A DNA stretch of 64,000 nt, from NCBI RefSeq assembly GCF_003018235.1, contig NZ_CP027437.1. One strand, written 5' to 3'. The notes under the pieces were generated by a model. It saw nothing but the letters and a program-made list of their open reading frames with translations. It made no database searches and was not told the DNA's origin. Position numbers and translations under genes: made by a program. This DNA is from Escherichia coli. GTDB lineage: Bacteria > Pseudomonadota > Gammaproteobacteria > Enterobacterales > Enterobacteriaceae. Positions 4,477 to 36,535 of this stretch are shown in pieces (position 1 is the first letter of the stretch; each line of letters starts with the position of its first letter).

Positions 4477-4483
4477 CAGGCGT

Positions 4484-4516
4484 AAAAAAGCCGGGGAATG
4501 ATCCCCGGCTTTTTTA
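4484..4516. terminator. bidirectional Rho-independent terminator between convergent pdeA and nupC
   Basis: stem agccgggga / tccccggct flanked by A-run and T-run. Confidence 0.7.
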
Positions 4517-23012: not shown

Positions 23013-23045
23013 GCAAACAGGAGCCTGATGGCTCCTGTTTTTCAT
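23013..23045. terminator. bidirectional Rho-independent terminator after alaC
   Basis: stem aaacaggagcc / ggctcctgttt with loop tgat, T-run downstream and A-run upstream. Confidence 0.7.
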
Positions 23046-24407: not shown

Positions 24408-24759
24408 AGTTACCTTCTGTAGATACGAATTGTTGTATCGCAGAAGATTCCATGTCGACAGCGGTACACTCAATTGGTTGGGCCATCATGTACGACAATG
24501 GTTCCTGTAAAGAGTGTAAAGACTAGTCAGGACATAACCACGAGGAGCATGAATGCGGTGGCTCTACTTTATCACTGGCTGACTGCTTTCAGCTACTGAT
24601 TATTAATCGTGCAAAGTAAAAAATTTTCCGCACGCAATAGCGTTGCATTTAACGTGCTGTTTTCATTGATGCTTAGCAAAAATTGCCAGAGGTTAAGGAT
24701 TGTCTTACTATTAAAGTGACTGAAGTTACAGGTTTTTTAGCGCGGCAGGAGGTTGAGCT

Positions 24760-25002
24760 ATGATTTATTTATGGATGTTTCTCGCCCTGTGTATTGTCTG
24801 CGTAAGCGGCTACATTGGTCAGGTCCTGAACGTGGTATCGGCGGTCTCTTCTTTCTTCGGCATGGTGATCCTCGCTGCACTCATTTATTACTTCACCATG
24901 TGGTTAACTAGCGGTAATGAACTGGTGACGGGGATATTTATGTTTCTTGCCCCGGCTTGTGGCTTGATGATTCGCTTTATGGTGGGGTATGGCAGGCGGT
25001 AG
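24760..25002 (+). CDS. yfdY: small inner-membrane protein, 80 aa
   Basis: ORF track; two hydrophobic helices; synteny. Confidence 0.7.
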   Translation: MIYLWMFLALCIVCVSGYIGQVLNVVSAVSSFFGMVILAALIYYFTMWLTSGNELVTGIFMFLAPACGLMIRFMVGYGRR

Positions 25003-25078
25003 TGGGTCAGGATGGTTCATTTGGGCAGGTGTTCACATCAGCATCAGACATGATTGTTCACCTGCCGTGTGACAGACG

Positions 25079-25354
25079 CTATCGCACAGGATGGATAAGA
25101 TAATTCGCCTTTGTCGGAAAAGGGGGCGGAATTTCTTCTGTGAGGTTTAATGGTGGCGCATCTTCTCTCATCTTAAACAAAATCGCCTGTGATGGCTGAA
25201 GTTTTGTAGAATGAGTTGTCGTCATCATTGACGTTTTTTCTGTCTCTTTATAGCTCGTCTCACTTCCACCACCAGAAATGGAAAATGCAAAAACATTGCA
25301 TGCCATAATAGAGACCAATAAAAATAAGCTAAAAAGCATTAAGTTTACTTTCAT
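25079..25354 (-). CDS. ypdI: small putative lipoprotein, 91 aa
   Basis: ORF track; signal peptide with lipobox-like IMAC; synteny. Confidence 0.7.
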   Translation of the reverse strand: MKVNLMLFSLFLLVSIMACNVFAFSISGGGSETSYKETEKTSMMTTTHSTKLQPSQAILFKMREDAPPLNLTEEIPPPFPTKANYLIHPVR

Positions 25355-25496
25355 AGAAAGTTATCCTGAAAATGGTTCACTGAAAACCTACGACGTTATT
25401 GCTGTATTTACATATAATTAATCAGTATTTACATCGATATAATAAATGACATCTCTTTTTGGTATATAAGAATAGTTCTCTGTGACAGGAAGCATA

Positions 25497-25514
25497 TTCC
25501 TACAATTGTAAGGC
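25497..25514. promoter_or_regulatory. EvgA-box candidate, TTCCTACA-AT-TGTAAGGC, upstream of yfdX
   Basis: 18-bp inverted repeat matching the EvgA consensus as I recall it (TTCYTACA-N2-TGTARGAA); about 135 bp upstream of yfdX. Confidence 0.55.
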
Positions 25515-25649
25515 TAAAATACTTCTTGCGATAATAACTACAACTGTAAGATAACCCTTTCAAAATGAGCGTTGCTCTCTGATTTCTCATTTCATGCTCA
25601 CCCAATATGATGGCGGCGTTTTCTAAAACTGTTAAAGAATGAGGTAAGT

Positions 25650-26282
25650 ATGAAACGTTTAATTATGGCTACGATGGTCACAGCAATTCTGGCATCTTCA
25701 ACTGTATGGGCGGCTGATAATGCACCGGTAGCGGCACAACAGCAAACTCAGCAAGTTCAGCAAACCCAGAAAACGGCAGCAGCAGAGCGTATCTCTGAAC
25801 AAGGTTTATATGCGATGCGTGACGTGCAGGTAGCGCGCCTGGCTCTGTTTCATGGCGATCCGGAAAAGGCAAAAGAACTGACCAATGAAGCTTCAGCTTT
25901 GTTGTCAGATGACAGTACCGAATGGGCAAAGTTCGCTAAGCCAGGTAAAAAGACCAATGTCAATGATGACCAATATATTGTCATTAATGCATCTATCGGA
26001 ATTTCTGAGAGTTATGTAGCGACACCCGAAAAAGAAGCCGCGATAAAAATTGCCAACGAAAAAATGGCGAAAGGGGATAAAAAGGGCGCAATGGAAGAGC
26101 TTCGCCTGGCCGGTGTTGGCGTAATGGAAAACCAATATCTGATGCCGCTCAAACAGACTCGTAATGCACTTGCTGATGCGCAGAAACTGCTTGATAAAAA
26201 GCAATACTACGAGGCAAACCTGGCGCTTAAAGGTGCGGAAGATGGAATCATCGTCGATAGCGAAGCACTGTTTGTGAACTAA
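25650..26282 (+). CDS. yfdX: periplasmic protein of the EvgA regulon, 210 aa
   Basis: ORF track; signal peptide; synteny. Confidence 0.8.
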
Positions 26283-26339
26283 CGCTGACAGGCAGTATAT
26301 TGAGGTAAAGGATTTAACTCCCTCCAGCCGACAATTTTT

Positions 26340-26370
26340 TATGACCACAATACGACAGATTGTGGTCATA
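26340..26370. repeat. perfect 12-bp-arm inverted repeat tatgaccacaat-N7-attgtggtcata between yfdX and frc (hairpin or operator)
   Basis: read directly; flanked by a T-run upstream and an A-run downstream. Confidence 0.5.
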
Positions 26371-26793
26371 AAATTATTTGGCGCTCGCGGTTCTATAAAC
26401 TCGCATTTTATCTTCCTCAAAGTAAACCGCAATAATCCCGTGTCATCACAAATCATTTATTATGTTATGTTTTATGGTACGCTTTAAAAATCGTAATCAT
26501 ACCCTTACTTGTAAATCACCGGCGCTTCTTACAGTTGTAAGAATAACATCACAAATGTCGCGGCTCTCTCTGATTACCGCGAACCAATATTTATCATATT
26601 CTTCTTTTCGTCCTCACTACTTACCATGCAGAAAGGAATTGGAAGTAGCGATGAAATGATTTTCAGTACTTGATACAGGAATTTAAAAATATCGAGTGCA
26701 GCTACGACGATATTTTGCGGATTATTTATAGAGGCGTTATGTCTTAAATAAACGCTAAATTAACACATATTTAATTAACTAATAGGTATTGCT

Positions 26794-28044
26794 ATGTCAA
26801 CTCCACTTCAAGGAATTAAAGTTCTCGATTTCACCGGTGTGCAATCTGGCCCATCTTGTACTCAAATGCTGGCCTGGTTTGGCGCTGACGTCATTAAAAT
26901 TGAACGTCCCGGCGTTGGTGACGTAACGCGTCACCAGCTGCGAGATATTCCTGATATCGATGCGCTTTACTTCACCATGCTTAACAGTAACAAACGTTCT
27001 ATTGAATTAAATACCAAAACAGCGGAAGGCAAAGAGGTAATGGAAAAGCTGATCCGCGAAGCTGATATCTTAGTCGAGAACTTTCATCCTGGGGCCATTG
27101 ATCACATGGGCTTCACCTGGGAGCATATTCAAGAAATCAATCCACGTTTGATTTTTGGTTCGATCAAAGGGTTTGATGAGTGTTCGCCTTATGTGAATGT
27201 AAAAGCCTATGAAAACGTTGCTCAGGCAGCGGGTGGCGCGGCATCCACTACGGGTTTTTGGGACGGTCCGCCGCTGGTAAGCGCTGCAGCGTTGGGTGAC
27301 AGCAACACCGGAATGCATTTACTGATCGGTTTACTTGCTGCTTTGCTGCATCGCGAAAAAACGGGGCGTGGGCAACGAGTCACCATGTCAATGCAGGATG
27401 CCGTATTGAACCTTTGCCGCGTGAAATTACGCGACCAGCAGCGTCTCGATAAATTGGGTTATCTGGAAGAATACCCGCAGTATCCGAATGGCACATTTGG
27501 TGATGCAGTTCCCCGCGGAGGTAATGCGGGTGGTGGCGGTCAGCCTGGCTGGATCCTGAAATGTAAAGGCTGGGAAACCGATCCTAACGCCTATATTTAT
27601 TTCACTATTCAGGAGCAAAACTGGGAAAACACCTGTAAAGCCATCGGCAAACCAGATTGGATTACCGATCCGGCATACAGTACAGCCCATGCCCGACAGC
27701 CACATATTTTCGATATTTTTGCTGAAATCGAAAAATACACTGTCACTATTGATAAACATGAAGCGGTGGCCTATTTGACTCAGTTTGATATTCCTTGTGC
27801 ACCGGTTTTAAGTATGAAAGAAATTTCACTTGATCCCTCTTTGCGCCAAAGTGGCAGTGTTGTTGAAGTGGAACAACCGTTGCGTGGAAAATATCTGACA
27901 GTTGGTTGTCCAATGAAATTCTCTGCCTTTACGCCGGATATTAAAGCTGCGCCGCTATTAGGTGAACATACCGCTGTGGTATTGCAGGAGCTGGGTTATA
28001 GCGACGATGAAATTGCTGCAATGAAGCAAAACTACGCCATCTGA
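26794..28044 (+). CDS. frc: formyl-CoA:oxalate CoA-transferase, 416 aa
   Basis: ORF track; CoA-transferase family III; synteny (yfdW). Confidence 0.85.
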
Positions 28045-28097
28045 TATTAACGGGGGCTTTTGGCTCCCAATTTATAAAAATTTCGAGGTTATTAATC

Positions 28098-29792
28098 ATG
28101 TCAGATCAACTTCAAATGACAGATGGTATGCATATCATCGTTGAAGCATTAAAACAGAATAATATTGACACTATTTATGGTGTTGTAGGTATTCCTGTGA
28201 CGGATATGGCACGCCATGCCCAGGCGGAAGGCATTCGTTATATTGGTTTTCGTCATGAGCAGTCGGCAGGCTATGCCGCTGCGGCAAGCGGTTTTCTTAC
28301 CCAAAAACCGGGGATCTGCCTGACAGTTTCTGCGCCAGGATTCCTCAATGGTTTGACCGCATTGGCCAACGCAACGGTAAATGGTTTTCCGATGATCATG
28401 ATTAGCGGCTCCAGCGACCGCGCGATCGTCGATCTCCAGCAAGGTGATTATGAAGAGCTGGACCAAATGAATGCGGCAAAACCGTATGCCAAAGCGGCGT
28501 TTCGCGTTAATCAGCCGCAGGATCTTGGCATTGCATTGGCACGCGCTATCCGGGTCTCAGTATCGGGTCGCCCTGGCGGAGTTTATCTTGATTTGCCAGC
28601 AAATGTCCTGGCCGCGACGATGGAAAAAGACGAAGCGTTAACCACGATTGTAAAAGTTGAAAATCCGTCGCCAGCATTATTGCCATGCCCGAAGTCAGTC
28701 GCTAGCGCAATTTCGCTTTTAGCAAAAGCTGAACGACCATTAGTTATCCTTGGCAAAGGCGCGGCGTATTCACAAGCGGATGAACAGCTTCGTGAATTTA
28801 TTGAAAGTGCCCAGATTCCATTCCTGCCAATGTCTATGGCGAAAGGGATCCTCGAAGATACACATCCACTTTCTGCGGCAACTGCGCGTTCGTTTGCCCT
28901 GGCAAATGCTGACGTTGTCATGCTTGTTGGTGCACGACTGAATTGGTTACTGGCACACGGTAAAAAAGGATGGGCGGCAGATACACAGTTTATTCAACTG
29001 GATATTGAACCGCAGGAAATTGACAGCAACCGCCCCATTGCTGTGCCAGTCGTTGGCGATATTGCATCCAGTATGCAAGGTATGCTGGCAGAACTGAAAC
29101 AAAACACATTTACGACTCCACTGGTATGGCGCGATATTTTAAATATCCACAAGCAGCAAAATGCACAAAAAATGCATGAAAAATTAAGTACAGATACTCA
29201 ACCATTAAATTACTTTAATGCATTAAGTGCTGTGCGCGATGTATTGCGCGAGAACCAGGATATTTATTTAGTTAATGAAGGTGCAAATACCCTGGATAAT
29301 GCACGAAATATTATTGATATGTATAAACCACGTCGCCGTCTGGATTGTGGTACCTGGGGTGTCATGGGCATCGGTATGGGCTATGCCATCGGTGCTAGCG
29401 TGACCTCTGGTTCTCCGGTTGTCGCCATTGAAGGTGATAGTGCTTTTGGTTTCAGTGGGATGGAGATTGAAACGATTTGTCGATATAACCTGCCGGTGAC
29501 GATCGTTATTTTTAATAATGGCGGCATCTACAGAGGAGACGGTGTTGATCTCAGTGGCGCTGGTGCACCATCACCAACAGATCTATTGCACCATGCAAGG
29601 TATGACAAATTAATGGATGCGTTTCGTGGCGTTGGCTATAACGTCACTACGACAGATGAACTTCGTCATGCTTTAACCACCGGTATTCAGTCGCGCAAAC
29701 CGACCATTATTAATGTGGTCATCGACCCTGCAGCAGGAACTGAAAGTGGCCATATTACCAAACTTAACCCAAAACAAATCGCTGGTAATTAA
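28098..29792 (+). CDS. oxc: oxalyl-CoA decarboxylase (ThDP-dependent), 564 aa
   Basis: ORF track; ThDP-enzyme fold; synteny (yfdU). Confidence 0.85.
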   Translation: MSDQLQMTDGMHIIVEALKQNNIDTIYGVVGIPVTDMARHAQAEGIRYIGFRHEQSAGYAAAASGFLTQKPGICLTVSAPGFLNGLTALANATVNGFPMIMISGSSDRAIVDLQQGDYEELDQMNAAKPYAKAAFRVNQPQDLGIALARAIRVSVSGRPGGVYLDLPANVLAATMEKDEALTTIVKVENPSPALLPCPKSVASAISLLAKAERPLVILGKGAAYSQADEQLREFIESAQIPFLPMSMAKGILEDTHPLSAATARSFALANADVVMLVGARLNWLLAHGKKGWAADTQFIQLDIEPQEIDSNRPIAVPVVGDIASSMQGMLAELKQNTFTTPLVWRDILNIHKQQNAQKMHEKLSTDTQPLNYFNALSAVRDVLRENQDIYLVNEGANTLDNARNIIDMYKPRRRLDCGTWGVMGIGMGYAIGASVTSGSPVVAIEGDSAFGFSGMEIETICRYNLPVTIVIFNNGGIYRGDGVDLSGAGAPSPTDLLHHARYDKLMDAFRGVGYNVTTTDELRHALTTGIQSRKPTIINVVIDPAAGTESGHITKLNPKQIAGN

Positions 29793-36517: not shown

Positions 36518-36535
36518 ATCCTACATGCGTAAGAA
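36518..36535. promoter_or_regulatory. EvgA-box candidate, aTCCTACA-TG-CGTAAGAA, in the evgA–emrK divergent region
   Basis: 18-bp imperfect inverted repeat resembling the yfdX box; lies between evgA and emrK. Confidence 0.5.

Follow-up and report, generated by a model that had tools for sequence, protein, structure and literature searches.

The 3′ untranslated region of yfdX in Escherichia coli carries a conserved, single-copy RNA stem-loop with perfectly complementary 15-bp arms, an element of an ordinary kind which, as far as could be found, has not previously been singled out. Its structure, position and conservation suggest that it would define the 3′ terminus of yfdX mRNA and protect it; in E. 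coli some leaky intrinsic termination may occur as well. We assign this reading a probability of about 0.6. The stem-loop was studied within a 64-kb segment of the E. coli chromosome (64,000 nucleotides, hereafter ‘the window’) with the gene order ypdA-alaC-lpxP-yfdY-ypdI-yfdX-frc-oxc-yfdV-yfdE-evgS, gene identities being confirmed by the RefSeq annotation of a 99.8%-identical E. coli genome. The coordinates of yfdX and frc confirm a gap of 511 bp between the two genes, and the hairpin begins 55 nt after the yfdX stop codon, on the same strand:

25650-26282, + strand: yfdX coding sequence.
26337-26373, + strand: stem-loop; 15-bp arms, 100% complementary (26337-26351 and 26359-26373), 7-nt loop ACGACAG.
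26340-26351 and 26359-26370: the 12-bp arms named in an earlier note on this DNA.
26794-28044, + strand: frc (formyl-CoA transferase), which opens the downstream unit frc-oxc-yfdV-yfdE.

The earlier note had described tatgaccacaat-acgacag-attgtggtcata as a perfect palindrome at 26340-26370, and exactly that sequence is found there. Its pairing is perfect as stated, but the arms had been drawn too short: three further pairs extend them to 15 bp, giving a left arm TTTTATGACCACAAT (26337-26351) and a right arm ATTGTGGTCATAAAA (26359-26373). Such a repeat is far beyond chance. Perfect inverted repeats with arms of at least 12 nt and loops of 3-12 nt appeared in 0/100 dinucleotide-preserving shuffles of the window, the real window holds just two perfect inverted repeats with 15-bp arms (this hairpin included), and the 37-mer folds as RNA with a free energy of -18.4 kcal/mol (z = -7.0 against shuffles). 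The stem is G-C in 4 of its 15 pairs, and its four basal pairs, next to the tail, are A-U. The other 15-bp-arm repeat of the window, at 4483-4516, has the textbook form of a bidirectional terminator. Elsewhere, an inverted repeat with perfect 13-bp arms, TAAAGTCACCTGC-ATA-GCAGGTGACTTTA (50566-50594), has a T-tract on neither strand and is another candidate hairpin of a kind other than an intrinsic terminator.

Relatives of the locus were collected by scanning one genome per species for YfdX, which gave few loci, and by adding metagenomic loci from protein searches. Yersinia alsatica and Y. vastinensis carry a yfdX-frc-oxc island beside IS remnants, with YfdX proteins 82-84% identical to that of the window. 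Against this island the hairpin is 33/37 identical (89%), compared with 54% for the spacer outside it, which makes it the second most conserved 37-nt stretch of the spacer after a 92% block that adjoins a binding site for EvgA (an EvgA box). At the level of the arms, 29/30 bases are the same in E. coli and in the first Yersinia lineage (A), where the pair 26344/26366 is A-U; in a second lineage, Yersinia B (L012 and L013), the same pair is G.U. In Y. alsatica, Y. vastinensis and their metagenomic relatives (L014-L017, L003, L012), yfdX-frc-oxc and the EvgA box sit beside IS1 and IS3 fragments, and this adjacency suggests that the Yersinia-type cluster was acquired horizontally.

More distant loci have different stems at the same place. 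L011 (YfdX 68% identical) has the perfect hairpin GGCCACAACC-ACGGAAC-GGTTGTGGCC, preceded by GCCGACAAT as in E. coli, and L023 (YfdX 65% identical) has another, GCCATATGC-ATAAACG-GCATATGGC. Both have 7-nt loops, lie 64-70 nt after the yfdX stop and lack a U-tract, and in both the gene order is yfdX then frc. Each of these loci is a single metagenomic contig, with hairpin homology resting on synteny: MAFFT could not align either hairpin with the others, and the covariance model found L011 only at E ~2 and did not find L023, so the two were used as syntenic analogues only. The yfdX-frc spacer of L023 is only 124 nt long and contains no EvgA box; frc there must therefore be read through the hairpin, which argues for a conserved role other than efficient termination.

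Beyond these loci, yfdX in Klebsiella and Buttiauxella is followed by an unrelated G+C-rich hairpin, likewise with no U-tract. In these genera (L019, L021 and L022 for Klebsiella, L004-L009 for Buttiauxella) yfdX lies between divergent hdeA-hdeD and a convergent evgS-like hybrid kinase gene and frc is absent, an arrangement that is a different wiring of the same acid-response genes. One further match, a 241-bp scaffold labelled Limosilactobacillus vaginalis (L010, NZ_GG693475.1), encodes the last 54 residues of YfdX with 100% identity to the window protein and is almost certainly E. coli contamination of that assembly. Matches in the plasmid collection were limited to distant yfdX paralogues and to E. 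coli chromosomes entered there as plasmids.

Within E. coli the element is nearly universal, and its alleles vary at few positions. The 66-nt hairpin region is present in 5404/5426 complete genomes, at a median of one place per genome. The perfect 15-bp form (and with it the 12-bp form) is a minority allele, with ~394 records at least 99% identical over the 66 nt; a G replaces the A at 26359 in 4674 records, K-12 among them (~86% of complete E. coli genomes), so that the loop-closing pair becomes U.G. The pair 26344/26366 is A-U in most E. coli, but in 257 records, reading ATGGCC...GGCCAT, A-T has been replaced by G-C on both arms. At most four records are one mismatch from this G-C allele, single-change intermediates being almost absent, and the allele may go back to a single evolutionary event. 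Replacement of A-U by G-C inside one species, with hardly an intermediate in 5400 genomes, illustrates on a small scale how a 3′ UTR hairpin can evolve by compensatory change. One strain, E. coli O19:H7 730V1 (NZ_CP061764.1; L029 421-1540), carries IS903B in the hairpin loop, flanked by the 9-bp target duplication TACGACAGG, and has an IS5 copy directly upstream in place of yfdX.

The hairpin does not belong to a dispersed family. Neither a second copy of its half-site nor a further match to its covariance model occurred in the 64-kb window, and neither the half-site search nor the model (R1) found an additional copy in any fetched locus; with one copy per E. coli genome, a repeated palindromic element (REP/BIME or a MITE end) was rejected. 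A search of 24500-28500 against Rfam at a permissive threshold gave no match at or above gathering score, and its two sub-threshold hits, to eukaryotic miRNA precursors (31.6 against 92 bits, and 18.6 against 50), were dismissed as generic hairpin matches.

The control signals of the spacer place the hairpin between two transcription units:

25497-25514, + strand: EvgA-like box with 2 mismatches, upstream of yfdX.
26526-26543, + strand: perfect EvgA box TTCTTACAGTTGTAAGAA (0 mismatches), between the hairpin and frc.
26541-26577, + strand: most conserved block of the spacer, 92% against the Yersinia island (54% background), adjoining the EvgA box.

The consensus searched was TTCYTACA-N2-TGTARGAA, for which 0.06 matches at ≤2 mismatches are expected by chance; one further match with 2 mismatches lies at 36518-36535. 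The perfect box is kept in the Yersinia loci and, together with the adjoining block (26526-26577), is presumably the EvgA-dependent core promoter of frc. According to PMC3720670, which cites Masuda and Church 2003, EvgA binds inverted repeats before both yfdX and yfdWUVE and induces both. A perfect EvgA box separates the hairpin from frc, which presumably gives frc-oxc a promoter of its own; the hairpin is therefore placed at the end of one EvgA-driven unit, and the control region of the following unit lies ~155 bp further on. The proposal that the amount of EvgA-driven transcript arriving at frc and oxc is set by the hairpin was not borne out, because with an EvgA box of its own 3′ of the hairpin, frc, and oxc with it, would receive read-through from yfdX as at most a secondary input. 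The EvgA box is also the known palindromic operator of this locus and resembles the hairpin in being a conserved palindrome of the same spacer, but the two are unrelated in sequence and differ in form (8-bp arms and a 2-nt spacer for the box, 15 bp and 7 nt for the hairpin), with the box 155 bp further downstream.

Other signals have been proposed, or could be read, in the same spacer. Genomic SELEX listed an RpoD promoter and H-NS in the frc-yfdX spacer, and the putative sigma-70 frc promoter proposed from it, TTTATA-18-AATAAT in K-12 (PMC3946193), maps to 26407-26436 of the window, 35 nt 3′ of the hairpin; its -35 element reads TTTATC in the window and the stretch is not conserved in Yersinia. 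Two further blocks, 26587-26623 and 26725-26760, are 78% conserved and lie within what would be an frc leader of ~200 nt; no analysis run on the spacer suggested a function for them. A promoter-like TTGTGA-18-TATATT (26272-26301), from which a ~75-nt RNA ending at the hairpin might have started, was discarded, as the scan gave 6 sites against 5.0 in shuffles and the -10 element is lost in Yersinia. A 48-aa ORF (26341-26487) with its ATG inside the left arm was likewise discarded, having no Shine-Dalgarno sequence and stopping after 4 codons in its Yersinia version.

How the yfdX transcript would end depends on what follows the stem:

26374-26381, + strand: weak U-rich tail TTATTTGG, directly after the stem and in all E. 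coli alleles examined.
26380-26640, + strand: untranslated stretch richer in C than in G (GC skew -0.10 to -0.42, mostly -0.2 to -0.4).

The U-rich part of the tail is UUAUUUGG; it is present only on the + strand, with none on the - strand, and is absent from the non-E. coli relatives, which have CTCTCTG (Yersinia), ATGTCCTG (L011) or GTTGTAGA (L023) at this position. In a loose consensus scan the + strand passes as terminator-like (15 pairs, 4 of them G-C, a 7-nt loop and the tail TTATTTGG with 5 T in 8 nt). Under a stricter score combining hairpin energy and T-tract, whose formula follows d'Aubenton-Carafa 1990 and serves as a rough guide rather than an independent tool, the E. coli hairpin reaches -16 and its relatives -33 to -53, compared with +5 to +29 for the four canonical terminators of the window (six strand readings) and -7 for a fifth terminator-like hairpin at 23015-23040; on the T-tract component alone the hairpin scores 2.9, against 2.6-5.3 for the canonical terminators. 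The earlier note had seen no convincing U-tract and had counted an RNA hairpin other than a simple terminator among its readings. Both views hold up: the combined score is low, the tail is missing in every non-E. coli relative, and given so weak and unconserved a tail that reading is the best one.

These measurements bear directly on the possibility that the hairpin acts in E. coli as a working Rho-independent terminator of yfdX with moderate efficiency, releasing most transcripts at UUAUUU while the relatives use other means. It shares with canonical intrinsic terminators a hairpin after the gene followed by U residues, a 7-nt loop and a free energy in the normal range; it is in the right place and orientation 3′ of yfdX, its stem is strong (-18.4 kcal/mol), the loose scan is positive and every E. 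coli allele examined has the identical tail. It departs from them, however, in a stem base of four A-U rather than G-C pairs, in the low G-C content of the stem as a whole, in having only UUAUUUGG for a tail, and in a combined score below those of the canonical terminators in the same window; moreover, Yersinia, L011 and L023 have kept the hairpin and not the tail, that is, the tail is unconserved in orthologous loci. Intrinsic termination is the main rival to the preferred reading, but rather unlikely as the whole explanation. Another candidate role is in the processing or stability of a yfdX-frc-oxc polycistron, as an intercistronic element with cleavage downstream by RNase E or in the stem by RNase III, leaving the yfdX segment longer-lived than the enzyme genes. 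The yfdXWUVE genes have been treated as one operon (PMC3720670, PMC6339873), the hairpin of L023 stands in a 124-nt spacer with no room for a promoter, and many E. coli operons show differential decay in which 3′ structures are protective (PMC5927463); as in those operons, the hairpin stands between the first and the later genes of a so-called operon and would protect the upstream segment. Unlike there, an EvgA-box promoter of their own serves the genes 3′ of the hairpin in E. coli, co-transcription across the hairpin is putative, and frc is likewise preceded by an EvgA or EvgA-like box in Yersinia and L011. At pH 4.4 the induction of yfdX mRNA (log2 4.9) is about the same as that of frc (log2 4.8; PMC10746267), so no large polarity is evident. 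The 15-bp helix is also short for cleavage within the stem. Typical substrates of RNase III have ~20 bp or more. An outer 5-bp helix, GCCGA/UUGGC, that appears in minimum-free-energy folds would lengthen the stem, but it is at chance level (about one such match is expected) and its Yersinia counterpart, CUGCA/UGCAG, is shifted in register, for which it was rejected. Taken with the separate EvgA boxes, these points make the processing element an unlikely explanation.

A different class of alternative places the function in the DNA. A dimeric transcription factor bound to two ATGACCACAAT half-sites, modulating yfdX or frc, would account for a perfect palindrome with no change at 13/15 arm positions between E. 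coli and Yersinia, against 54% identity in the flanks; the relatives lack a canonical terminator tail, and the promoter proposed from SELEX lies 35 nt downstream (PMC3946193). Several points speak against it. The A-T to G-C change affected both arms at once in L011 as well as in the 257 E. coli records; a second copy is lacking from the 64-kb window and from E. coli genomes; Yersinia has not kept the SELEX promoter; and the hairpin follows the yfdX stop at a distance of more than 150 bp from the frc EvgA box further downstream, overlapping or adjoining no conserved promoter. The half-site resembles no operator known to us. The wobbles are also asymmetric between the strands: both G.U at 26344/26366 and the loop-closing U.G pair only in + strand RNA and become C.A mismatches on the - strand. 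The Yersinia B allele accordingly folds at -17.5 kcal/mol on the + strand and -12.1 kcal/mol on the - strand, and in 7/8 alleles folding of the + strand is no less stable than that of the - strand. A function of the - strand was rejected on these wobbles and on the want of a T-tract after the stem. Formal covariation is weak and not significant, as 13/15 pairs never vary in the alignable set (E. coli and Yersinia) and the one double change was reached by 245/500 shuffles. Because pairing has been kept through substitution (A-U, G-C and G.U at one pair, U-A and U.G at the other) and different stems occupy the same place in distant loci, the sequences fit a sense-strand RNA stem-loop better than a protein operator, in a way that is suggestive rather than conclusive. 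The operator that the earlier note had offered as an alternative is disfavoured by the compensatory arm change, the + strand wobbles, the single copy and the lack of an adjoining conserved promoter, and we regard it as very improbable. Hardly more credible is a stem-loop bound sequence-specifically, by an RNA-binding protein or a DNA-binding regulator, and switching EvgA-driven yfdX transcription into frc-oxc; such recognition would explain arms that are near-invariant from E. coli to the Yersinia island and, if true, would be a second control layer on oxalate-dependent acid-tolerance genes. As for the hairpin having no present function, as a relic (a mobile-element end) or a chance palindrome, a point in its favour is that one strain tolerates IS903B in the loop; nevertheless, with no such repeat in 100 shuffles, a single copy rather than a repeated element, and an island of conservation within a diverged spacer whose hairpin is maintained in four lineages, this is the least probable of the explanations.

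The reading we prefer, in which the stem-loop defines and protects the yfdX 3′ end, draws on a described class of transcript ends. In Rho-dependent transcripts, the steady-state 3′ end lies precisely just after a stable stem-loop without a U-tract, with a rut site immediately downstream, and the stem-loop is reported to guard against PNPase and RNase II (Dar and Sorek, PMC6061677). The yfdX hairpin is similar in being a stable sense-strand stem-loop soon after the stop codon, in lacking a proper U-tract (wholly in Yersinia, L011 and L023, and in part in E. coli, where the weak tail remains), and in being followed by untranslated sequence with more C than G. It differs in the weak U-rich tail of E. 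coli and in a stem that is unusually long (15 bp) and A/U-rich. From its composition we infer that the untranslated stretch 26380-26640 is a candidate Rho-loading region for read-through RNA, although the C excess is modest: the GC skew taken over 26320-26640 is -0.15 to -0.42, and over the 120 nt after the hairpin C/G is 1.3-1.5 in E. coli and 1.7-2.5 in Yersinia, with no excess in L011 and L023 (C/G 0.9-1.1). The PMC7815308 supplement records a BCM-sensitive (Rho-dependent) site within yfdX.

Under the proposed mechanism, transcription from the EvgA-activated yfdX promoter would continue beyond the stop codon, and in E. coli part of the polymerases may stop at the weak UUAUUU tail, amounting to leaky intrinsic termination. 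The remainder would enter the 500-nt untranslated, C-rich spacer, where Rho would be expected to terminate them, and 3′-to-5′ exonucleases would then trim the RNA back to the stem-loop and be blocked by it. The predicted outcome is a stable monocistronic yfdX mRNA, uncoupled from frc-oxc-yfdVE; most transcription of the latter would come from its own EvgA-box promoter, ~155 bp beyond the hairpin. Hairpins are a generic feature of gene ends, and conservation of arm sequence is also expected of an operator. None of the Term-seq, TRS and SMRT-Cappable-seq supplements examined contains a 3′ end at the yfdX hairpin: those of TRS, SMRT-Cappable-seq and Dar 2018 PLoS Genetics have no entry for yfdX at all, and that of Adams 2021 has only the internal yfdX site. 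The probable reason is that yfdX is hardly expressed unless acid or EvgA induces it; the literature and supplements examined likewise held no Northern or footprint data for the site.

The stem-loop is of little importance beyond annotation and of low general interest. It does, however, refine the picture of yfdXWUVE as a transcription unit: yfdX probably ends at its own stem-loop, and frc-oxc-yfdV-yfdE starts at a separate EvgA-box promoter, a division that is relevant to the construction of reporters or deletions in this acid and oxalate tolerance locus.
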